Positions 5,989-57,816 of a DNA stretch of 64,000 nt are shown piece after piece; position 1 is the first letter of the stretch, and each line of letters starts with the position of its first letter. The stretch spans positions 1 through 64,000 of the IMG/VR virus record IMGVR_UViG_3300021961_000063; one strand, written 5' to 3'. The notes beneath the pieces were generated by a model. That model was not told the origin of the DNA and searched no databases. It worked only from the letters and a program-made list of their open reading frames with translations. This DNA is from a virus. A program made the position numbers and the translations under genes.

Positions 5989-6240
5989 ATGGAAAATAAA
6001 GTTTTAACCCAAGAAGAGTTACAAAAATTAAACAATTTAAGAGATAGAAGAAATCAATTAGTTTCTGATTTCGGAGTTATTGAAATACAAATCCAAGAAC
6101 TAGAACTCCAAAAGGATACTCTTATTAAGTCTTTAGAAGACTTAAAACAACAAGAATATACTTTAGGTAACGAAATACAAAATAAGTATGGTCGAGTTCA
6201 AATTAATTTAGATAACGGAGAAACTACTCTTCTGGATTAA
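5989..6240 (+). CDS. Small coiled-coil protein (late gene, possibly an assembly chaperone)
   Basis: Heptad-rich 83 aa ending KYG..INLDNG; preceded by AATATTTATA. Confidence 0.6.
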   Translation: MENKVLTQEELQKLNNLRDRRNQLVSDFGVIEIQIQELELQKDTLIKSLEDLKQQEYTLGNEIQNKYGRVQINLDNGETTLLD

Positions 6241-6297
6241 TTTTTAAGAACTTCTGTCATATTTATCACGGAATAAAATTAATTAATTTATTAGAAA

Positions 6298-8577
6298 ATG
6301 GCAGAAACATTAATATCCCCTGGTGTATTAGCATTAGAAAACGATAACTCTTTCGTATCCTCGCAACCAGTAACTGTAGGAGCTGCTCTTGTTGGCCCAA
6401 CCGTAAAAGGTCCAGTTGAAGTCCCTACTATTGTTACCTCATGGAGTGATTACCAAAACAGATTTGGTACTACTTTCTTAAGTGGAAGTAACGTTTATAC
6501 TTATTTTACTTCTATTGCTGCATACAATTATTTTGCAAATGGAGGTCAAACCTTATTAGTATCTAGAGTAACAAGTGGTTCTTTCACTTCTGCTACTTCA
6601 ACTGCTATCTATAATGGTTTAGAAAGTGGCGACGTAAACGCTGGAACAAATTTATTAGGTTCATACACTAGTGGTGGAACTGGAGGTTCAGCAGGTACTT
6701 ATTCTGCTGTAGCTACTACTACTTCTGGTACTGGTACTGGAATCACTTTAAATGTTACTACCTCTACAGATAATGGTAAAATATTAACTACAGCAGACGC
6801 TTTACTTTCTTCAATAACTTCTAATCCAACAGATTGTGATGATGCTACTTACACAGGTGTAGCTCTTACAGGTGGAAGTGGTACAGGTGCTGTAGCAACA
6901 GTAGTTTGTTCTGGTAACACAATTACTAGTATCACTGTAACCACAGCAGGTTCAGGATATGAAGCTGGAGATGTGTTAACTATTGCCGCTTTAGCTTTAG
7001 GAACAGCCTCATCCGCCGCTACTATTACATTAGTTTCAGGTGATTTATTAGTTGAAACAACAGCAGTTGCCGTAGTTACTGCCGGTACTGGATACGCCGT
7101 AGGAGATACAGTAACTGTAGCTTTAGGTTTAATTGGTAGCCCATCAGCTAACTTAGTATTAACTTTAGTAGCTGGCGATATTGAAAATAGTGATGCTTTA
7201 GTATTAAAAACCCTTTCTCAAGGTGTTATTATGAATAGCTCAGGCTCTGAAGATGCTTATGGCGCTTTAGAAAGTGGCTCTGTTAATAACGTTAGATTCC
7301 AAATTACTAATAACGATACCGCCTCTGGTACATTTACTTTGTTAGTTAGACAAGGTGATGATACAACAACTAATAGAACTATATTAGAATCTTGGACAAA
7401 TTTGTCAATGGATCCTACCGCTCCTAACTATGTATCTAGAGTTATTGGTGATCAGTATAAAGTTTATAATTCAACCGATAACCAAATCGTAGTAAATGGT
7501 ACTTATCCTAACAATTCAAGATATATCTATGTTAGTGCTGTAAACTCTCCAACACCAAACTATTTTGATAATGCTGGTTTGCCCAAATCTCAATATACTG
7601 CTTCTATTCCTTTGAATGGTTCAGGTTCATTTACAGGTGCTGTAGGTGATTTATTTGGAGCTGGTGCTAAATTTTATGATAACATAGTTTCCGGAGTAAA
7701 TAACATTCAAGGTTTAGATGCTAGTGATTATGATAACATGATTGCTTTAATGTCTAATGCTGATGACTACAGATACAATGTGTTATTGACTCCTGGTTTA
7801 TTTGCCTCTGAAAGTGATTTAGGAGGTGCTCAAGTAACTACAGCTATTAATAATACTCAATACAGAGGTGATGCTATTTATGTTGCTGATTTAGTACCTT
7901 ATGGTTCATCTATTAGTACTGTAACAAGCCAAGCAAATGCTAAAAATACTTCATACGCTGCTTCTTACTGGCCTTGGGTTCAAACAATTGATCCAAGTTC
8001 AACTCAATTAGTTTGGGTTCCTGCCTCGGCAATGATTGGTGGTGTTTATGCTTATAACGATAGCGTAAGTGAGCCTTGGTTCGCACCTGCTGGTATTAAC
8101 AGAGGTGGTTTATCTACTGTAGTAAGAGCTGAAAAGAAATTATCACAAGCTAATCGTGATACTTTATATTCAAATAAAGTTAACCCAATTGCTACTTTCC
8201 CTGGAACAGGAGTTGTAGTATACGGTCAGAAAACATTACAAACTAGAGCTTCTGCTTTAGATAGAGTAAATGTTCGCAGATTGTTAATTGCTTTGAAATC
8301 TTATATTTCCCAAGTAGCAAATAACTTAGTATTTGAACAAAACACAATTGCAACTCGTACTAACTTCTTAAACCAAGTTAACCCATACTTAGAATCAGTA
8401 CAACAACGTCAAGGTTTGTACGCTTTCAAGGTAATCATGGATGATAGTAACAACACTCCAGATGTAATCGACAGAAATCAAATGGTAGGTCAAATTTATT
8501 TACAACCTACTAAGACTGCTGAATTTATCTATTTGGACTTCAACATCTTACCTACAGGAGCTACTTTCCCTGCATAA
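6298..8577 (+). CDS. Contractile tail sheath protein with an inserted T/S/G-rich domain pair
   Basis: N-terminal SPGV..E, C-terminal WFAPAGINRG, NPIATFPG.GVVVYGQKT, RVNVRRLL, FEQN, P.KTAEFI. Confidence 0.95.
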   Translation: MAETLISPGVLALENDNSFVSSQPVTVGAALVGPTVKGPVEVPTIVTSWSDYQNRFGTTFLSGSNVYTYFTSIAAYNYFANGGQTLLVSRVTSGSFTSATSTAIYNGLESGDVNAGTNLLGSYTSGGTGGSAGTYSAVATTTSGTGTGITLNVTTSTDNGKILTTADALLSSITSNPTDCDDATYTGVALTGGSGTGAVATVVCSGNTITSITVTTAGSGYEAGDVLTIAALALGTASSAATITLVSGDLLVETTAVAVVTAGTGYAVGDTVTVALGLIGSPSANLVLTLVAGDIENSDALVLKTLSQGVIMNSSGSEDAYGALESGSVNNVRFQITNNDTASGTFTLLVRQGDDTTTNRTILESWTNLSMDPTAPNYVSRVIGDQYKVYNSTDNQIVVNGTYPNNSRYIYVSAVNSPTPNYFDNAGLPKSQYTASIPLNGSGSFTGAVGDLFGAGAKFYDNIVSGVNNIQGLDASDYDNMIALMSNADDYRYNVLLTPGLFASESDLGGAQVTTAINNTQYRGDAIYVADLVPYGSSISTVTSQANAKNTSYAASYWPWVQTIDPSSTQLVWVPASAMIGGVYAYNDSVSEPWFAPAGINRGGLSTVVRAEKKLSQANRDTLYSNKVNPIATFPGTGVVVYGQKTLQTRASALDRVNVRRLLIALKSYISQVANNLVFEQNTIATRTNFLNQVNPYLESVQQRQGLYAFKVIMDDSNNTPDVIDRNQMVGQIYLQPTKTAEFIYLDFNILPTGATFPA

Positions 8578-40269: not shown

Positions 40270-40767
40270 ATGTTATTAAATTCAAATCAAATATCAAATC
40301 ACATTATTGAGTCCGAATTTTCAAAACGTGCTCAAATTGGTATCGACCTTTCAGTTCAAAAAATTGAATGGGTTTCTGCTGGAACTACTGTTTATACTGA
40401 TAAAACTATCGTAGATCCTTTCTTTTATCATGAACAGCCTTTGATCATGATTGATGGTAAAGAATGCTGGCGCTTGTCCAAAGGTGTTTATTCAGTTACA
40501 TTTAATGAAGGAATTAATGTTCCTGTTGATTGTGCTGCTAAAATTACTCACCGCTCATCTTTGTATCGTGGAGGTACAATTATTGAATCTCCTTGGTGGG
40601 ATCCTGGTTTCCATTGTGAAATTATGAACTCAACAATGATTGTAAATAGTTCAATTATTATTGAGAAAAATGCTCGAATCGCTCAAATCGCTTTCTGGCG
40701 TGTTGAAGAGGTAGGTGAGCAATACAATGGTCAATTCCAAGGTCTAAACACAGCATACAACAAGTAA
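40270..40767 (+). CDS. Trimeric dUTPase / dCTP deaminase family protein
   Basis: GIDLS, HRSSLYR, WDPGF, RIAQIAF, YNGQFQG. Confidence 0.82.
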   Translation: MLLNSNQISNHIIESEFSKRAQIGIDLSVQKIEWVSAGTTVYTDKTIVDPFFYHEQPLIMIDGKECWRLSKGVYSVTFNEGINVPVDCAAKITHRSSLYRGGTIIESPWWDPGFHCEIMNSTMIVNSSIIIEKNARIAQIAFWRVEEVGEQYNGQFQGLNTAYNK

Positions 40768-43361
40768 TGTATCAAGCTCTATACTTTGATAGAGAGGAAA
40801 AACAGTATTATCTGAGAGATGATAGGTGGGACGGTTTTAAATCTTTTAAATACTGGCCCTCCTATTATGCTCCAGATTCTGATGGTGAGTTTGAAACACT
40901 AGAGGGAACTAGAGTATCCCCTGTTAAAAAAATGTCCGATTACAAAAACCCTTGGTATTTTGAAAAGGATGTAGATAAACTTACTCGTTTACTTGTTGAT
41001 TATTATTACGAATCAGACGAACCACCTAAATTTCATAACATTGTTTATTTAGACATTGAGTGTGAGATTATGGGAGCGTTAACCGAGGATAACATTAAGG
41101 ATCCTAAAGGTAAAATCACAGCTGTTGCTTTATATAATCAAAACGATAAAAAATATTACTGTTTAATTTTAGATGAAGCTAAAAAAATGTCTGCTGCTAG
41201 GTCTGAGGGTAAAGAAATTATCCCTTATGCTAGTGAAAAAGAATTATTACACGGATTTTTAGAAAAATGGTATGAATTAGATCCTACTATTATTACAGGA
41301 TGGAATAGTGGTTTTTTTGATATTCCTTATTTATATTATAGAATTAAAAAAGTATTAGGCGAATCAATTGCCCAAACACTTTCTCCTATTAATAAAATTC
41401 ATTTTACACCTCAATTCCCCGAACAACCTGTTAATTTTGCTGGTATTAATCACCTTGATTATATGCTTTTGTTTAAAAAATATATTGTAAAACAAGAGCC
41501 ATCTTATCGTTTAGGTGATATTGGTAAAAAATATGCTGACCTAGAAAAAATTGAATATCAAGGTTCATTAGATAGATTGTTTGCTGAGGATGTAGATAAA
41601 TTTATTGAATATAACCTTCGAGACGTAGAAATTATTGTTGAGTTAGAAAACAGACTTAAATTTATTGACCTAACAACTACAATTGTTCACTTGTGCCATA
41701 CAGAATATGAAGCTATTTATTTTTCTACTCTGTTAAATGAAGGAGCTATTTTAACTTACCTAAAACGTAGAGGTATTGTTTCACCTAACAAACCTACAAC
41801 CTACAATCCAGCATTAAGAACATTAGAGGAAGAATATGCTGGAGGTTATTTGAAAGATCCTACACCTGGTTTGTATGAGTGGGTTATTGACTTAGATTTT
41901 ACCTCATTGTATCCTTCTATTATTCGCTCACTTAATATGGGAATTGAAACATTAGTAGGTAGAATTGTAAACCGAGGTAAATTCGACAACCAATGGTCAC
42001 TTAAGGAACTTAGGTCAATGGATCCTAATACTACTATTGAGATTGAAAAAGTAAAAAAAGATAGAACAACAGTTAGATCTAAAACCACAGTTGGGGATAT
42101 AATTGGAGTTATTGAGGAAAATGACCTATTAATTTCCGCTCCAGGAGTAATGTTCCGTAAGGATAAATCAAGTGTTGTTTGTGAAATTCTAGCTGACTGG
42201 TTTGCTAAACGTCAAGAGTATAAAAAACTCATGAAAAAAGCATACAAGGAAGATAATGACCCAGTTATGGGAGAGTTTTACAATAAACGTCAACACGCTT
42301 ATAAAATTAAGTTGAATGACGTTTATGGTGTATTTGCTATCAATGGTTGGAGATACACAGATGGTAATAAATTCATTAGTAAAGCAATTACTTTAACAGG
42401 TCAACGATTAACTCAAGAAAGTATTAAGTTTGTTAATAATTGGTTAAATGAACAATTAGAAACTAACAATAAAGATTATATTGTCACCTCAGATACCGAT
42501 TCATTGTTTATTCAAGTAAAAGATTTAATTTTACAACGTAAACCTGAGTTAGTAAATGCTGATAAGGAAACAATTGTAAAAGAAGTACTACAAGTTGCTA
42601 CTGAAATTCAAAAATTAGCAAACGATAATCTACATACAATGGTTAAGGAATTATTTAATGTTGATTATCCAAATGAACCTCATTATTTCGAATTAAAACA
42701 AGAGGTTGTACTTGATAGAGGTTATTTTGCTGGCAAGCGTAGATACGCCCAACATATTGTTAACAAAGAAGGTGTTACTGTAGATGAATTAGATGTTAAA
42801 GGTTTGGATTTGATGAAATCAAATTTCCCACCATTGTTTAGAAGATTCGGTGAACATATTATTAATGAAATTATGTTTGGTAAACCTAAAGATGATGTTG
42901 ATAAACAAATATTAGACTTTAGAACCGAATTAAGAACAATTGATTGGAGACAAATTTTAAAACCTACTGGATTAAAGAAAATGGAAGAATATTTAGCTGC
43001 TCCCCCTAGAGGTGGTGAAATATTTTCTAAATTAGGATTAAAATGCCCTATTAATACTAAAGCAGCTATTTACTATAATGATATTTTAAGATTTAAGGGA
43101 CTAGACAAAAAATACCCAACATTCCAAATTGGTGATAAAATGTTTATTGCTTATTTAAAAGATAATCCCTATCGAATTGATGTTGTTGGTTTTAATGGAT
43201 ACAATGATCCCCCAGAAATGATGGAATTTATAGAAAAGTATATTGATAGAGACGGTTTGTTTGATTCAGTTATGAAAAACAAACTAGAGTCATTATATTC
43301 AGATCTAGGTTGGGGTGCTGTAGTGCTTAACCAAAACATAAATAAATTTTTTAAATTTTAA
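40767..43361 (+). CDS. Family B DNA polymerase
   Basis: Exo LDIE, GWNSGFFDIPY, YNLRD; pol DFTSLYPS, KIKLNDVYG, SDTDS, KRRY. Confidence 0.95.
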   Translation: MYQALYFDREEKQYYLRDDRWDGFKSFKYWPSYYAPDSDGEFETLEGTRVSPVKKMSDYKNPWYFEKDVDKLTRLLVDYYYESDEPPKFHNIVYLDIECEIMGALTEDNIKDPKGKITAVALYNQNDKKYYCLILDEAKKMSAARSEGKEIIPYASEKELLHGFLEKWYELDPTIITGWNSGFFDIPYLYYRIKKVLGESIAQTLSPINKIHFTPQFPEQPVNFAGINHLDYMLLFKKYIVKQEPSYRLGDIGKKYADLEKIEYQGSLDRLFAEDVDKFIEYNLRDVEIIVELENRLKFIDLTTTIVHLCHTEYEAIYFSTLLNEGAILTYLKRRGIVSPNKPTTYNPALRTLEEEYAGGYLKDPTPGLYEWVIDLDFTSLYPSIIRSLNMGIETLVGRIVNRGKFDNQWSLKELRSMDPNTTIEIEKVKKDRTTVRSKTTVGDIIGVIEENDLLISAPGVMFRKDKSSVVCEILADWFAKRQEYKKLMKKAYKEDNDPVMGEFYNKRQHAYKIKLNDVYGVFAINGWRYTDGNKFISKAITLTGQRLTQESIKFVNNWLNEQLETNNKDYIVTSDTDSLFIQVKDLILQRKPELVNADKETIVKEVLQVATEIQKLANDNLHTMVKELFNVDYPNEPHYFELKQEVVLDRGYFAGKRRYAQHIVNKEGVTVDELDVKGLDLMKSNFPPLFRRFGEHIINEIMFGKPKDDVDKQILDFRTELRTIDWRQILKPTGLKKMEEYLAAPPRGGEIFSKLGLKCPINTKAAIYYNDILRFKGLDKKYPTFQIGDKMFIAYLKDNPYRIDVVGFNGYNDPPEMMEFIEKYIDRDGLFDSVMKNKLESLYSDLGWGAVVLNQNINKFFKF

Positions 43362-51996: not shown

Positions 51997-53433
51997 ATGA
52001 ATTCAAGTTTTGCCTATCTTCCTCCTGATAAGAGGAAAAAGATATTGCTTATTACAGATGACATTAGAGTACATTCAGGTGTAGCTAATGTAGGTAAAGA
52101 AATTGTATTACACACATCACAACATTTTAATTGGGTTTGTGTTGGTGGTTCAATCCAACACCCTGATAAAGGAAAACGTTTTGATTTGTCTTCATCAACA
52201 AATGAAGTAACAGGATTAACAGATACTTCTACTATTTTATACCCTGTTGATGGGTATGGAACACCCGAATTGATTCGTTTTTTAATGATAACTGAAAAAC
52301 CAGATGCTATCTTGTTAATTACTGATCCAAGATACTTTACATGGTTATTTCAAATGGAAAATGAGATTCGTAAAGAAATCCCAATTGCCTATTTGAATAT
52401 TTGGGATGATTATCCCGCTCCAATGTATAATAAAGCCTATTATGAGGCTTGTGATTTGTTAATGGGTATTTCAAAACAAACAGTAAATATTAATAAACTT
52501 GTTTTAGGTGATAAAACAGAAGGTAGAATTTTTAAATATGTTCCTCACGGATTAAATCATGAAATATTTAAACCTTTAGATAAATCAGATCCTCAATTGT
52601 TAGAATTTAAAAAACAATTATTTAAAGGTAAAGAATATGATTTTGCTTTATTATTTAATTCTAGAAATATTAGACGTAAACAAATTCCTGATACTATTTT
52701 AGCATATAAATATTTTATTGACCAGTTACCTATTGAAGAAGCTAAAAAATGTATTTTTGTATTACACACAGACCGAGTATTTGATCATGGAACTGATTTA
52801 AATGCTGTAATAGAATTGTTGTGTAATGATGAAAAATATAATATTATATTCACAGATCAAAAGTTTTCACATGATCAAATGAATTTGCTTTATAACAGCA
52901 CTGATTGCCAGATTTTATTAACATCAAATGAAGGTTGGGGATTGAGTTTAACTGAAGCTATTTTAGCAGGTAATCCTATTATTGCTAATACAACTGGTGG
53001 TATGCAAGATCAAATGAGATTTGAAGATGAAAATGGTAATTGGTTTACTCCTAGTGCTCAAGTTCCCTCTAACCATAGAGGAACCTATAAAAAACATGGT
53101 GGTTGGGCATTCCCCGTATTTCCGTCTGTAAGAACTCTTGTTGGTTCACCTCCAACACCTTATATTTGGGATGATATCTGTAGTGCTGAAGATGCTTCTA
53201 AACGTATTATGGAAGTTTATAACTTAGACCCTACAGAACGTAAAGCTAGAGGCTTAATGGGTAGAGAATGGGCAATTGGTGAAGAAGCCGGATTTACAGG
53301 AGAAATACAAGGTAAACGAGTTATTGAAGCCTTTGATGAATTGTTCTCGACTTGGGAACCTAGAGAATATTTTGAATTCATTAACACTAATGAAGTCCCC
53401 GATAGAGTTTTAACCCACGAATTGATATATTAA
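51997..53433 (+). CDS. GT4 glycosyltransferase
   Basis: SGVA, VPHG, RNIRRK, EGWGLSLTEA, TGGMQDQ. Confidence 0.88.
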   Translation: MNSSFAYLPPDKRKKILLITDDIRVHSGVANVGKEIVLHTSQHFNWVCVGGSIQHPDKGKRFDLSSSTNEVTGLTDTSTILYPVDGYGTPELIRFLMITEKPDAILLITDPRYFTWLFQMENEIRKEIPIAYLNIWDDYPAPMYNKAYYEACDLLMGISKQTVNINKLVLGDKTEGRIFKYVPHGLNHEIFKPLDKSDPQLLEFKKQLFKGKEYDFALLFNSRNIRRKQIPDTILAYKYFIDQLPIEEAKKCIFVLHTDRVFDHGTDLNAVIELLCNDEKYNIIFTDQKFSHDQMNLLYNSTDCQILLTSNEGWGLSLTEAILAGNPIIANTTGGMQDQMRFEDENGNWFTPSAQVPSNHRGTYKKHGGWAFPVFPSVRTLVGSPPTPYIWDDICSAEDASKRIMEVYNLDPTERKARGLMGREWAIGEEAGFTGEIQGKRVIEAFDELFSTWEPREYFEFINTNEVPDRVLTHELIY

Positions 53434-54725
53434 TGAAAAATACAGTTGTAATTAGCTCACCCTTTGATACCTATTCAGGATACGGAGCTCGAGCTCGAGA
53501 CGTAATTAAAGCTATTTTAGCTACAGACAAATATGATGTTAAACTTTTAGCTCAACGTTGGGGCAATACACCTTTTGGATTTTGTAATGATAACCCAGAA
53601 TGGGCACACTTATTAAAATTAGTAGTTCCTAACTTACAACAAAAACCAGACATTTGGATTCAAATTACTATTCCAAGTGAATTCCAACCAGTAGGAAAAT
53701 ACAATATTGGAATTACAGCTGGAATAGAAACTACAGTATCCCCGGGCGATTGGATTGAAGGAATTAATAGAATTGATTTAACTTTAGTTTCATCTAATCA
53801 TTCTAAACAAATTTTCCAAAACACTCAGTTTGATAAAAAAGATAAAAATACAAATCAAACAGTAGGTATTACTAAAGTAGAAAAACCAATTGAAGTATTA
53901 TTTGAAGGAGCTAATTTAGATATTTATAAAGCTTTAGATAAAATTCCACCAAGTGATTTAAATGATGCTTTAAAAGAAATTCCTGAATCCTTTGCTTATT
54001 TGTTTGTAGGACATTGGATTAATGGAGATTTGGGTGAAGATAGAAAAAATGTAGGTTTATTAATTAAATCGTTTTTCGAAACCTTTAAGAATAAAACCAA
54101 CAAACCAGCATTGATTTTGAAAACATCTCAAGTAGGTTCTTCCTATATGGACCGAGAGGAAATTTTAAAGAAAATTAAACAAATTCGTAAAACAGTAAAC
54201 TCAACTAATTTACCTAATGTTTATTTACTTCACGGTGAATTTACAGATGAGGAAATGAATGACATTTATAATCACTCCAAAGTAAAAGCTATGATTAGTT
54301 TAACTAGAGGTGAAGGTTTTGGTCGTCCCTTACTTGAATTCAGCCTAACCAAAAAACCAATTATTGCTTCCGGATGGTCAGGTCATATTGATTTCCTTAA
54401 ACCAGAATTTTCTAGTTTATTAAATGGTAAATTAACCCAAGTTCATCCTAGCGCTGCTAACCAATGGTTATTAGCTGAATCACACTGGTTTGCTCCTGAT
54501 TTATTCCAAATAGGTCATTATTTAAAAGATGTATTTGAAAATTATAAAAACTATATTGATGGAGCAAAACGCCAAGCTTACTATAGTAAAACTAACTTTA
54601 GTTGGGATGGTATGAAAGATTTGTTAGAAAAAATTATGAATGAAAATATTCCTGAATTTCCTAAACAAGAGAAGCTAAATATTCCTTTATCTTTACCTAA
54701 ATTAGAAACAGTAAATGAAAATTAG
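53433..54725 (+). CDS. GT4 glycosyltransferase
   Basis: SGYG, DRKN, RGEGFGRPLLE, WSGHIDF. Confidence 0.88.
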   Translation: MKNTVVISSPFDTYSGYGARARDVIKAILATDKYDVKLLAQRWGNTPFGFCNDNPEWAHLLKLVVPNLQQKPDIWIQITIPSEFQPVGKYNIGITAGIETTVSPGDWIEGINRIDLTLVSSNHSKQIFQNTQFDKKDKNTNQTVGITKVEKPIEVLFEGANLDIYKALDKIPPSDLNDALKEIPESFAYLFVGHWINGDLGEDRKNVGLLIKSFFETFKNKTNKPALILKTSQVGSSYMDREEILKKIKQIRKTVNSTNLPNVYLLHGEFTDEEMNDIYNHSKVKAMISLTRGEGFGRPLLEFSLTKKPIIASGWSGHIDFLKPEFSSLLNGKLTQVHPSAANQWLLAESHWFAPDLFQIGHYLKDVFENYKNYIDGAKRQAYYSKTNFSWDGMKDLLEKIMNENIPEFPKQEKLNIPLSLPKLETVNEN

Positions 54726-55356
54726 TTATGCGATATTAACCCACAATGAAGGGGAATACATTAACAAATTACTCAATCTATTAGTTAATACTAAACGACC
54801 AGAGGATGAAATTGTAATTGTTGACGATCACTCAACCGATGAACTTACTAAACAATATTTAAACGAATATAAACCACATATTAAACTATACTACAGAGAA
54901 TTTGATGGTGACCATACCCAGAAAAATTATTTAAATAGTTTATGTACGGGTGATTATATTCTTCAATTGGATGCTGATGAATTAGTTTATCCTGAATTCA
55001 TTAATATTTTACCCTCTTTATTAGAAAATAACTCTCAGGTAGATTTATTTATTATGCCTCGTATTAATACAGTAGAAGGATTAACTCCTGAATACATCCA
55101 AAAATGGAGATGGAATGTAAATGAAAAAGGATGGGTTAATTTCCCTGATTGGCAAATGCGTCTTTATAGAAATTGTGATTGGGTAAAATGGGAAGGTTTA
55201 CTTCATAGTAAAATCGAAGGACATAAAACTTATGTTTTTTTACCTACTGAAGAAATATATTGTCTTCTCCACCCTAAAGAAATAGAAAGACAAGTCGCTC
55301 AAAACGATTTATATAATAAAATTGAATTAAACGGAAAAACTAAATACAAAGTATAA
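54715..55356 (+). CDS. GT2 glycosyltransferase
   Basis: ISYAILTHNE, VDDHSTD, GDYILQLDADE, PDWQMRL. Confidence 0.88.
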   Translation: MKISYAILTHNEGEYINKLLNLLVNTKRPEDEIVIVDDHSTDELTKQYLNEYKPHIKLYYREFDGDHTQKNYLNSLCTGDYILQLDADELVYPEFINILPSLLENNSQVDLFIMPRINTVEGLTPEYIQKWRWNVNEKGWVNFPDWQMRLYRNCDWVKWEGLLHSKIEGHKTYVFLPTEEIYCLLHPKEIERQVAQNDLYNKIELNGKTKYKV

Positions 55357-55937
55357 TGGAAAACAATCAAATACCTAAATTTATTTACATTCATATACCT
55401 AAAACCGGAGGTAGTTCGGTAAAAGAAATATTTAATCAAACGGATTATATCAAAACTATAGGTCATGTTCATGGACTCCAACAAAAACTTCCAATTCCCA
55501 CATTTACATTAGTTAGAAACCCATATTACCGAACATTATCTGCTTATAATTATCTTTGTACGGGCGGTGATGGGAATGAAGCTGATTTAAGAGATCAAAA
55601 AAGATTTTTTGAAGGATTTGAACCTACTATAGAACACTTTCATGTTTTTGTAAAAGAAAAACTAAAAGATATTATATGGCAACAAGTCCATTTTTTACCC
55701 TTAACTTATTTCTGTGTGTTTGAAAGTAACTTACTAATCGATTTTGCTATGAAGTTAGAAGAATTAGATTCTAGCTGGAAGGGATTATGTGATTACTTAG
55801 GGATTGATACTCCTTTAATTAAAACAAATGAAGGTCCTAAAATAACAAACAAAGAAGAATGGTTAACACCTGAAATTAAAGAAATTATATATGAAATTTA
55901 CCAACCGGATTTCATTAATTTCCAATATGAAAAATAA
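55356..55937 (+). CDS. Sulfotransferase family 2 protein
   Basis: FIYIHIPKTGGSS, VRNPY.R.LSAY, HFLP, Y..DF..F.Y. Confidence 0.88.
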   Translation: MENNQIPKFIYIHIPKTGGSSVKEIFNQTDYIKTIGHVHGLQQKLPIPTFTLVRNPYYRTLSAYNYLCTGGDGNEADLRDQKRFFEGFEPTIEHFHVFVKEKLKDIIWQQVHFLPLTYFCVFESNLLIDFAMKLEELDSSWKGLCDYLGIDTPLIKTNEGPKITNKEEWLTPEIKEIIYEIYQPDFINFQYEK

Positions 55938-55983
55938 ATTTAAACTTGGATACTAAAAAACAAAATATTATATTTAATAAATT

Positions 55984-56439
55984 ATGGATAATTTAACAAT
56001 ATGTGATCGCTGTGGCTCCGATGCTTGCTATGTAGACGAAGTCAATATGGATATTAAAACCTATTTCTGTTATGGATGTGGTTTTCAATCTAATTCTTTA
56101 ATGAAGGAAGGTGAAGAGTTTTATGATCAACAATCATCTGTTTTACCTGAACTGTATAAGGATTTATTTCACAAAGATGAATCAGGTAAAACTTGGATGC
56201 CTTCAGCAGTAAATATTCCTGAAAAAGGAATGGTATTTGCTAATGGTTCTGGAATAAATGATTGGCATTGGTCAGCAATAAAATCTACTCCTATTAAAGA
56301 GGAAGACCAACACAAATACAAAAACGCTAAAAACCCTAAACAAACCTATAAATTCAAAATGGATATGGAAACTATGAAAAATTTTCCTGAAAGAGAATTT
56401 ATGGACGCCTTAAGTTACATTGGAGCATTACCCGAATAA
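55984..56439 (+). CDS. Zinc-ribbon hypothetical protein
   Basis: CDRCGSDAC...CYGCG. Confidence 0.6.
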   Translation: MDNLTICDRCGSDACYVDEVNMDIKTYFCYGCGFQSNSLMKEGEEFYDQQSSVLPELYKDLFHKDESGKTWMPSAVNIPEKGMVFANGSGINDWHWSAIKSTPIKEEDQHKYKNAKNPKQTYKFKMDMETMKNFPEREFMDALSYIGALPE

Positions 56440-56441
56440 TT

Positions 56442-56891
56442 ATGATATATTGGTTTACAGGCCAGCCAGGTCACGGAAAAACAGTTTTGTGTAATCACTT
56501 AAAAGATTACTTAGAATCTAACTACACAAAACAAATTATCCACATTGATGGAGATGACATTAGAGAAGTATTTCAAAACAAAGATTACTCAAAAGAAGGT
56601 AGAATTAAAAATATTACCTTTGCTCAAAATTTAGCTCACTTTTGTAACCATAAAGGTTTTGATGTTGTAGTTAGTGTTGTAGCTCCTTATAAAGAAGTTA
56701 GAGATTCATTTAAGGAAAGAATGGGTAGTGAAATGGTAGAAGTTTATGTTCACACTACTGAAATTAGAGGTAGAGAACAATTTCACGTAGCTGAATACGA
56801 AGCACCTACCGAAAACTTTATAGATATCGATACAACAGAAGAATCACCTGAGGGTAGTTTGGTAGAATTAGTTAACCAAATAGGAATATGA
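56442..56891 (+). CDS. cysC: Adenylylsulfate kinase
   Basis: WFTGQPGHGKT, IDGDDIR, YSKEGR..NI, VAPY...R, YEAP. Confidence 0.87.
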   Translation: MIYWFTGQPGHGKTVLCNHLKDYLESNYTKQIIHIDGDDIREVFQNKDYSKEGRIKNITFAQNLAHFCNHKGFDVVVSVVAPYKEVRDSFKERMGSEMVEVYVHTTEIRGREQFHVAEYEAPTENFIDIDTTEESPEGSLVELVNQIGI

Positions 56892-57241
56892 AAAAGAATA
56901 CCTATTTTTTTGACATTGATGGAACTATTTTCAAATATAGACAATTTGATTTAATCCCTAAAACCAAACCAGAGGTAATTAAAAGTACTAGAAAACAACT
57001 AAAAGAGTGGTACAACGAAGGACACCACATTATTATATGTACTGCTCGTCCCTATGATTTAAAAATACATACCCTAGTTGAGTTGCAAGACAATGATATA
57101 CCCTATCACCAGATAATTATGGGTTTAGAACGAGGACCAAGATATATTGTTAATGATATGGACCCCACTAAGGAAGGTAAACGAGCAATTGGAATTAATT
57201 TAATTAGAGATAAAGGATTTACAGATTATGAATTGGACTAA
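56888..57241 (+). CDS. HAD-family phosphatase
   Basis: FFDIDGTI, CTAR, MGLERGPRYIVND. Confidence 0.8.
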   Translation: MKKNTYFFDIDGTIFKYRQFDLIPKTKPEVIKSTRKQLKEWYNEGHHIIICTARPYDLKIHTLVELQDNDIPYHQIIMGLERGPRYIVNDMDPTKEGKRAIGINLIRDKGFTDYELD

Positions 57242-57620
57242 AAAAATACACGTACCTTCTTCACTACAACGTAAAGAAGGACAACACGCAATGTTTATTG
57301 GACGTTGGCAACCACTACATGATGGACACAAAGGATTGTTTCAACAAGCAATGGATGAGGGCAAACATGTTTTGATTTGCATTAGAGATATCGCTCCTGA
57401 TGAGAAAAACCCATTTACAGCACAACAAGTACTAGAAAACATTACCTCAGTCTATGAAAATGAACCCCGAGTTAAAGTAATAGTTATTCCCGATATTTGT
57501 TCTGTTGAATTTGGTAGAGGTGTCGGTTATGATATTATTGAACACATCCCACCAACAGAAATTGGAGAAATATCAGCAACAAAAATACGTGAGCAAATGA
57601 GGGCCGATGGTAAGTTATAA
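57228..57620 (+). CDS. HIGH-superfamily nucleotidyltransferase (cytidylyltransferase-like; candidate mini ATP sulfurylase)
   Basis: GRWQPLHDGH, NPF, GRGVGY, ISATKIR. Confidence 0.75.
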   Translation: MNWTKKIHVPSSLQRKEGQHAMFIGRWQPLHDGHKGLFQQAMDEGKHVLICIRDIAPDEKNPFTAQQVLENITSVYENEPRVKVIVIPDICSVEFGRGVGYDIIEHIPPTEIGEISATKIREQMRADGKL

Positions 57621-57816
57621 GCGACATATAGCAAAAACTATTACTTGGAGAATACTAGGAACTATTGATACTATTCTTTTAGGTTGGTTTATTACTGGTA
57701 GTTGGGCTATCGGTTTATCTATTGGGGGAGTTGAAATGATTACTAAAATGGTTTTATATTTCCTACATGAACGTGTTTGGTATAAATGGATTAAATTTGG
57801 TTTAAATAAAGATTAA
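57607..57816 (+). CDS. DUF2061-like small membrane protein
   Basis: RHIAKTITWRILGT...TKMVLYFLHERVW. Confidence 0.8.
   Translation: MVSYKRHIAKTITWRILGTIDTILLGWFITGSWAIGLSIGGVEMITKMVLYFLHERVWYKWIKFGLNKD

Follow-up and report, generated by a model that had tools for sequence, protein, structure and literature searches.

A probable phage module for PAPS synthesis and sulfotransfer with a candidate 130-residue ATP sulfurylase

Gene content of the locus

The DNA analyzed here (the window, 64,000 nucleotides) covers positions 1 to 64,000 of a 75-kb virus fragment in IMG/VR (IMGVR_UViG_3300021961_000063), which has a G+C content of ~32% and is ~40% complete by the CheckV estimate. Nine coupled genes lie on its + strand between positions 51997 and 57816; they encode three glycosyltransferases (GTs), a sulfotransferase, a Zn-ribbon protein, an adenosine 5'-phosphosulfate (APS) kinase, a HAD phosphatase, an HxGH nucleotidyltransferase (hereafter NT), and a DUF2061 protein. 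Judging from gene content and context, the part at 55356-57816 is probably a phage-borne module for 3'-phosphoadenosine 5'-phosphosulfate (PAPS) synthesis and sulfotransfer that is attached to a three-glycosyltransferase island. Convergent genomic evidence makes it likely, in our judgment, that the 130-aa NT is an ATP sulfurylase. The genes and their best profile matches are as follows.

51997-53433, + strand: GT-B glycosyltransferase of the GT4 family, the first gene of the island (PF00534, 4.8e-08; phrog_2170, 7e-17)
53433-54725, + strand: second GT-B glycosyltransferase-like protein, GT4-like (phrog_2170, 9.5e-22, full length)
54715-55356, + strand: GT2 glycosyltransferase (PF00535, 8.9e-19)
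55356-55937, + strand: predicted PAPS-dependent sulfotransferase of the carbohydrate type (PF03567, 1.5e-13; phrog_3347, 3.7e-20)
55984-56439, + strand: Zn-ribbon protein (N-terminal CxxC...CxxC)
56442-56891, + strand: short-form, CysC-like APS kinase, predicted to convert APS to PAPS (PF01583, 4.8e-18, 66.1 bits)
56888-57241, + strand: capless (C0) HAD phosphatase (Hydrolase_3, 3e-07, 30.9 bits)
57228-57620, + strand: 130-aa HxGH nucleotidyltransferase (NT), candidate minimal ATP sulfurylase (PF01467, 8.9e-07, 29.6 bits)
57607-57816, + strand: DUF2061 protein with two hydrophobic segments (PF09834, 7.6e-24)

The GT2 and sulfotransferase genes overlap by 1 nt, cysC and the HAD gene by 4 nt, the HAD and NT genes by 14 nt, and the NT and DUF2061 genes by another 14 nt, while 2 nt separate the Zn-ribbon gene from cysC. 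An earlier note on this DNA had described the genes from the sulfotransferase to DUF2061, tightly coupled from cysC on, directly 3' of three glycosyltransferases; all of them were found where it had placed them, on the + strand, as were the NT motifs that it had picked out: GRWQPLHDGH (residues 25-34), GRGVG (residues 96-100), and ISATKIR (residues 115-121). A profile scan of the 75-kb virus record found no Sat or CysD-type gene. No second sulfotransferase was found in that record either, the one at 55356-55937 being the sole representative.

The NT accompanies APS kinases and sulfotransferases

The NT belongs to a large family: the 8,000 candidates scored fall into more than 7,900 clusters at 90% identity, and 478 clusters at 50% identity have E values of 1e-10 or lower. 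We examined the neighborhoods of 80 viral loci, drawn from a set of 560 confirmed matches, and of 80 cellular loci. The cellular search used a narrower alignment and relied on a single peptide pattern, and this sample is therefore biased toward members of the FIGRWQPxH type.

In 148 of the 160 loci (75 viral and 73 cellular), the NT gene has an APS kinase gene on its own strand at a distance of no more than 600 bp. The cysC-NT-DUF2061 core recurs across the 80 viral loci, and this recurrence indicates that the arrangement is not due to chance. These neighborhood statistics, which the earlier note had called for, also place a DUF2061 gene 3' of the NT gene in 74 of the 80 viral loci and in 3 of the 80 cellular ones. 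The HAD gene is found less often (~16/80 viral loci and 1/80 cellular loci); in the viral loci it always lies inside the cysC-NT-DUF2061 block, on either side of the NT gene.

Fusions of the NT to an APS kinase occur in both orders and account for well over a hundred clusters. In P0172, for example, the kinase precedes the NT, and its domain reaches 225.7 bits across the entire profile. A fused form is also represented by phrog_10255. The opposite order is found in P0265, P0271, P0284, P0309, P0312, P0317, and P0353, whose kinase domains score 90 to 194 bits (193.8 bits in P0309). One cluster, P0225, is a fusion of the NT to a sulfotransferase. Clustering of the neighboring open reading frames (ORFs) and annotation of their representatives revealed a PF13469/PF00685 sulfotransferase within 6 kb, just 5' of cysC, in 59 of the 80 viral loci. 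A PF19798 or PF13469 sulfotransferase is encoded within the same distance in 36 of the 80 cellular loci, surrounded in Marinimicrobia by genes for capsules or polysaccharides and located in haloarchaea beside the fusion gene.

Several NT neighborhoods have additional genes. In seven loci of Omnitrophota and Planctomycetota (L140, L142, L153, L156, L157, L163, and L164), the genes for a sulfotransferase, an amidinotransferase-like (ADI) protein, an APS kinase-NT fusion, a methyltransferase, and a B12-radical-SAM protein are clustered, an arrangement more suggestive of the synthesis of a sulfated small molecule than of a polysaccharide. The Xylella phages Bacata (L002:739-1434) and Salvo (L003:381-1076), both salvoviruses, have a fused APS kinase-NT gene that is annotated merely as a kinase. 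No sulfotransferase is annotated near it. An annotated cysteine dioxygenase gene lies ~3 to 4 kb 5' of the fusion gene in the same gene run, with a MazG-like pyrophosphatase gene between the two, and these enzymes could provide the fusion protein with a source of sulfur oxoanions and a sink for pyrophosphate (PPi), respectively. A protein of ~291 aa without a Pfam match (representative L072:936-1811) accompanies the sulfotransferase-cysC-NT-DUF2061 block in 51 of the 80 viral loci, usually encoded just 5' of the sulfotransferase or just 3' of DUF2061; the window does not encode it. The gene for MetK (S-adenosylmethionine synthetase) stands directly 5' of the APS kinase-NT pair in marine group III and related archaea (L116, L119, L124, L126, L127, and L141), which may be explained by simple synteny, these archaea being closely related, or by a functional connection. 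Three odd fusions, P0147, P0310, and P0143, join the NT to an FeS_assembly_P domain, to DUF6717, and to a NUMOD3-repeat protein, respectively; the last of these is probably what remains of a homing endonuclease or an error of gene calling.

The NT occurs in place of known ATP sulfurylases

Among 30 NT-bearing cellular genomes, 29 encode an APS kinase, mostly as a single copy at the NT locus, while Sat is present in 2, CysD in 5, and neither in 23. Among these 23 are the haloarchaeal isolates in the set G009-G015 as well as a Pyrinomonadaceae chromosome of 4.5 Mb. All six control genomes with an APS kinase have Sat or CysD.

A strong APS kinase was detected in 9 of 151 evenly sampled Halobacteria. 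Four of the nine have a Sat gene directly upstream of the kinase gene and no NT, five have APS kinase-NT fusions and lack both Sat and CysD, and none combines Sat with the NT. The NT and Sat thus appear to share one slot in a mutually exclusive manner. Five haloarchaea with the fusion keep a genuine nicotinamide mononucleotide (NMN) adenylyltransferase (NMNAT) elsewhere in the genome, which scores 252 to 263 bits on a model that gives their NT domains 34 to 37 bits.

All of the comparative tests that were run, namely fusion, adjacency, sulfotransferase neighborhood, the lack of Sat and CysD in NT-bearing genomes, and the exclusion with Sat in Halobacteria, support the central idea of the earlier note, in which the NT supplies APS for a route from sulfate through APS and PAPS to a sulfated glycan.

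Partner proteins of the NT

The kinase encoded at 56442-56891 clears the PF01583 cut-off of 21.1 bits with 66.1 bits. The 17 solved chains nearest to it, among them 2yvu with a match to residues 2-139 at 4e-11, are without exception APS kinases or kinase domains of PAPSS. Its motifs GQPGHGKT (P-loop), DGDDIR, and VVAPYKEVRD align with the kinase motifs of 2yvu and 7yq0. An aromatic residue is also aligned between the window kinase and the solved APS kinases, together with Arg and Asn of one segment that we take to be APS binding. In Marinimicrobia whose genomes likewise have neither Sat nor CysD, the partner of the NT is the same short form of the kinase. In the (F/V)xSPY motif (residues 88-92), the window kinase has VVAPY where 2yvu and 7yq0 have VSPY, so that Ser is replaced by Ala.

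The sulfotransferase (PF03567, 51.9 bits; cut-off, 22) carries PKTGGSS at residues 15-21 and RNPYYRTLS at residues 54-62, the 5'-phosphosulfate loop (5'-PSB) and the 3'-phosphate motif (3'-PB), respectively. Since it has a 3'-phosphate-binding motif, this enzyme should need PAPS rather than APS, and it is the predicted consumer of the PAPS made by the module. No PF03567 counterpart was found in any of the 80 related viral loci; only the window has one.

DUF2061 was recognized in the 69-aa protein at 57607-57816 with 84.3 bits (cut-off, 23.1) over profile positions 1-51 of 52. Cellular copies were found at the head of operons with the gene orders Rrf2-DUF2061-cysH-cysD in two Bacteroidota (L170 and L171), Rrf2-DUF2061-cysH in a metagenome-assembled genome (MAG) of a planctomycete (L172), DUF2061-cysH-cysD in L180, and DUF2061-cysC-cysD in L181 and L182. 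Further copies, the haloarchaeal ones among them, have no sulfate assimilation genes within 1.5 kb. DUF2061 is thus a partner common to CysD-type and NT-type modules, which fits an NT that does the job of CysDN. The earlier note had suggested that DUF2061 may take part in sulfate supply. Its position at the head of operons with cysH-cysD and cysC-cysD argues for a recurrent partner of sulfate activation, and a role in the supply itself is perhaps what this gene position reflects. No description of DUF2061 function was found in the literature, the few papers that name the domain being uninformative. In many relatives, DUF2061 is associated with an extra domain of ~75 aa, which is fused to it in L006 to L009 (145 aa; L006:6387-6824) and encoded by a separate preceding ORF of ~77 aa elsewhere (e.g., in L014 and L041); the 69-aa form in the window lacks it.

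The HAD protein possesses the DxDGT motif with D9, D11, and T13, which are invariant among 13 homologs, as are T52 and D90; N89 is nearly so. No close solved relative was found by sequence. Its structural model has a pLDDT of 76 with a poor C terminus, and the fold matches are weak (E, ~1e-3), including 1xpj, the phage arabinose-1,5-bisphosphate phosphatase AfhF, the 3'-phosphatase of T4 Pnkp, and GmhB. The capless HADs that it weakly resembles are enzymes that take one phosphate off doubly phosphorylated substrates. By analogy, our best guess is that the HAD is a 3'-phosphatase of PAP (3',5'-ADP), the by-product of the sulfotransferase; PPi or a sugar bisphosphate could be its substrate instead.

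Descent of the NT

With 29.6 bits against a PF01467 cut-off of 21, the NT is a member of the HxGH nucleotidyltransferase superfamily. An alignment of 54 diverse members defines the family signature FIGRWQPxHxGH, IRD, NPxT, IPDI, YGRGVGY, and ISATxIR. Residues R26, H31, H34, G96, R97, G100, and R121 are invariant, and S116 and T118 are invariant or nearly so. Both by sequence and by fold, the NT is a trimmed relative of the archaeal NadM-type NMNAT (TIGR01527; 1f9a, 1ej2, 2qjt, and 2qjo) and is not derived from Sat. The 54-member profile matches archaeal and NadM-type NMNATs, reaching 1f9a at 1e-15, and both enzymes have GRxQPxHxGH, NPxTA, and ISxTxIR on a Rossmann-like HxGH core. The alignment covers residues 4-75 and 110-159 of 1f9a; the ~34 residues in between (76-109), presumably those that hold the nicotinamide-binding residues of archaeal NMNATs, are replaced in the NT by ~9 residues with the GRGVGY loop. 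Where 1f9a has a glycine, the NT has R53. The NT is thus shorter than NMNAT (130 versus ~170 residues), has a new loop and a new arginine, and differs from it in its genomic context of APS kinase and sulfotransferases. It scores far below the cut-offs of the NMNAT models (27.9 versus 181.2 bits for TIGR01527 and 35.1 versus 127 bits for NF002243).

The single-domain AlphaFold model of the 130-aa NT (pLDDT, 93.7) superposes on the catalytic domain of Thermus Sat (1v47) with a Z score of 7.7, a root mean square deviation of 3.7, and 20% identity over 113 residues, the aligned catalytic part spanning residues 151-332 of 1v47. Other Sat structures (1j70, 2gks, 1x6v, and 4maf) gave Z scores of 5.7 to 6.0, and the HldC-type adenylyltransferase 5x9q gave 6.4. 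The highest PF01747 (Sat) score among the NT relatives is that of P0265 (21.6 bits). Membership of the NT in the Sat family was rejected on the grounds of its subthreshold PF01747 score and of the nearer NMNAT-type profile and fold matches. The proposal of a minimal ATP sulfurylase in the earlier note is supported by the genomic evidence, with the caveat that the NT descends from NMNAT-like enzymes.

Several observations weigh against the assignment of the NT as an ATP sulfurylase and of the locus as a sulfation module. The folds closest to the NT according to VIA-align are those of the 1f9a NMNAT (Z, 9.9), PPAT (9.8), and NadM (9.3 and 9.0), not that of Sat, and Foldseek agrees with this ranking. 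On PF01747, for which the cut-off is 24.3 bits, the NT reaches 15.4 bits (10.1 when the genome was scanned), and its 54-member profile has no Sat match among solved structures at E values up to 1. When the NT profile was compared by hhalign with one Sat sequence (not a Sat profile), the alignment was limited to the ISATKIR tail. GRWQP and GRGVG only loosely echo the QxRN and GRDHAG of Sat, with R, P, H, H, and G-R recurring at different spacing, and the additional domains of Sat, including the N-terminal beta-barrel, are absent from the single-domain NT with its core of ~110 residues. The window kinase, being of the short form, aligns with PF01583 profile positions 4-111 of 152 and stays below the NCBIfam equivalog level (TIGR00455, 67.6 bits; cut-off, 138.7). 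Many of the sampled cellular genomes are incomplete MAGs or single-amplified genomes (SAGs), and the phyletic counts lack phylogenetic independence. Finally, no recognizable sulfotransferase is encoded within 6 kb of the same cysC-NT-DUF2061 block in the closest relatives of the locus (L006 to L009 and L017).

Proposed pathway and alternative explanations

In the pathway that we propose, the NT would adenylylate sulfate (ATP + SO4 -> APS + PPi). It would represent a third and very small kind of ATP sulfurylase, that is, a NadM-type NMNAT without the segment corresponding to 1f9a residues 76-109 and with the invariant arginines R53 and R97. The adjacent short APS kinase would turn APS into PAPS and thereby pull the unfavorable first step, and the PF03567 sulfotransferase would move the sulfate group to a glycan that the two GT4-type enzymes and the GT2 enzyme encoded upstream would build. 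The HAD would probably clear a phosphorylated by-product, most likely PAP, and DUF2061 may aid the supply of sulfate.

The strongest competing explanation is a nucleoside diphosphate (NDP)-sugar pathway, in which the kinase would form a sugar bisphosphate, the HAD would remove its distal phosphate, and the NT would produce an NDP-sugar for the glycosyltransferases, following the logic of HldE/GmhB (ADP-heptose) and of phage AfhE/AfhF (UDP-arabinose). Such a pathway would suit the kinase-HAD-NT order directly 3' of three glycosyltransferase genes, the presence of AfhF and GmhB among the weak fold matches of the HAD, and the fold that the NT has in common with the HldC-type 5x9q. Phage AfhE is moreover a kinase-pyrophosphorylase fusion that works with a HAD, AfhF, although its domains belong to other families (PMC13326640). 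We consider this pathway improbable, because the HAD is optional at viral and cellular loci alike, the solved relatives of the kinase are all APS kinases, many of the fusions contain an APS kinase of canonical type and full length, and the NT-kinase pair tracks sulfotransferases and replaces Sat rather than following sugar genes. The NT might instead activate another small group or make a PAPS analog that is then 3'-phosphorylated by the CysC-like kinase. APS kinase homologs act on other nucleotide anhydrides; in the phosphoramidate pathway of Campylobacter, a CysC homolog phosphorylates CDP-amidate. The acceptor specificity of the NT is a prediction, and the short kinase form is divergent, both of which leave room for such a substrate. 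This possibility nevertheless appears slim to us: the neighbors are ordinary PAPS-type sulfotransferase families with PAPS-binding motifs, no glutamine kinase or amidohydrolase was found among the annotated neighbor clusters, and the NT is complementary to Sat specifically.

It is likewise hard to credit that the NT is a noncatalytic or regulatory partner of the APS kinase, with a nucleotide-binding or scaffolding role, and that APS is supplied by the host or by an unrecognized enzyme. Dead partners do exist in this pathway, as fungal ATP sulfurylase carries a noncatalytic, APS kinase-like regulatory domain. In the NT, however, HxGH, ISxTxxR, and three arginines are invariant in 54 diverse members, and 23 of the 30 NT-bearing genomes would be left without a known source of APS. 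The earlier note had named a plain NMNAT as one finding that would overturn its proposal. An NMN (or nicotinic acid mononucleotide [NaMN]) adenylyltransferase for NAD salvage, accompanied by a kinase acting as a NadR-like ribosylnicotinamide kinase, would agree with NadM and archaeal NMNATs being the top NCBIfam and PDB sequence matches and the best fold match of the NT, and NadR itself joins an NMNAT to a P-loop kinase. It is very unlikely all the same, given the TIGR01527 score of the NT, the loss of the segment at 1f9a 76-109, the separate genuine NMNAT of NT-bearing haloarchaea, a kinase of the APS kinase type, and neighbors that are sulfotransferases and not NAD genes.

Sulfate activation by the NT would resemble known systems in part. 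Sat (PF01747; 1v47, 1j70, 2gks, and 4maf) also belongs to the HxxH nucleotidyltransferase superfamily, has a superposable core and an APS kinase partner, and catalyzes the reaction proposed here, but the Sat-bearing frames in this analysis are 393 to 598 aa long, compared to the single 130-aa domain of the NT. Bifunctional PAPS synthases (human PAPSS1, 1x6v; Aquifex Sat-CysC, 2gks; CysN-CysC) similarly couple or fuse a sulfate activator to an APS kinase. The NT fusions, unlike these, are ~250 to 360 aa long with an activating half of ~110 residues, and in the window the two genes are separate with the HAD gene between them. The CysDN heterodimer has the same proposed reaction and the DUF2061 partner in common with the NT, yet it has an unrelated fold (a PAPS reductase-like ATP pyrophosphatase plus a GTPase) and is driven by GTP. 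To our knowledge, the textbook enzymes that make APS are of two types only, Sat and CysDN. A literature search found no description of the NT family, as a sulfurylase or otherwise.

A third type, if true, would fill a hole in the pathway of genomes in which APS kinase and sulfotransferases are present without a known sulfurylase, and would provide a very small PAPS synthesis pair for biotechnology as well as a testable context for DUF2061. It would also move the interpretation of phage cysC genes away from sulfur assimilation and toward sulfation, either of glycans or of parts of the virion. In freshwater phages of larger genome size, cysC is encoded and transcribed and has been interpreted as assimilatory sulfate reduction (PMC10914622). 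An NT partner, DUF2061, and sulfotransferases go unmentioned in the portions of that COBRA study considered here, and the genomic context described above points to sulfation. A considerably bolder version of the proposal, which we put forward only tentatively and think doubtful as a whole, is that the NT family constitutes a third, independently evolved, NMNAT-derived class of ATP sulfurylases (~110 to 130 residues) that is the sole sulfate activator in some haloarchaea, Marinimicrobia, Pyrinomonadaceae, Omnitrophota, other groups, and many phages, and that the phage kit is self-sufficient, with DUF2061 serving as a membrane importer of sulfate and the HAD, a capless one, as a new type of PAP phosphatase.

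The virus and its closest relatives

The tail sheath and polymerase regions of the window lie at 5992-8577 and 40767-43361. The sheath protein shares 54% identity with its homolog in Flavobacterium phage vB_FspM_immuto. The family-B DNA polymerase shares 34% identity with its homolog in Microcystis phage Mel-JY01, and weaker matches were found in T4-like cyanophages. The phage is therefore a distant T4-like myovirus. Its host is possibly a member of Bacteroidota, which the G+C content of 32% would fit. A blastn search with the module against isolate phages gave no match.

The closest relatives of the locus (L006 to L009 and L017) have NTs that are 75 to 83% identical to that of the window, as well as shared flanks. 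Their gene order is GT4-GT4-Zn ribbon-(variable)-GT2-cysC-(HAD)-NT-DUF2061, followed on the 3' side by variable sugar genes (a DegT aminotransferase, epimerases, transketolase-like halves, and more glycosyltransferases). In most other phages, the sulfotransferase-cysC-NT-DUF2061 block stands beside fiber-like and tail sheath genes; in the window, the sheath gene is ~50 kb away. The target of sulfation may be a host envelope glycan, a glycan of a virion protein, or another molecule, and no single one is favored because of the relatives without a sulfotransferase and the distant sheath gene.

The second GT-B protein (53433-54725) remained barely below the cut-off of Pfam GT1 families (24 bits). 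The Zn-ribbon protein gave a subthreshold Lar-like match as its sole Pfam signal, and an Atlas search with it returned viral hypothetical clusters only. Copies of the Zn-ribbon protein that are 60 to 72% identical are encoded in L006 to L009 and L017, and the first GT4 enzyme (51997-53433) is 76 to 78% identical in the same relatives.

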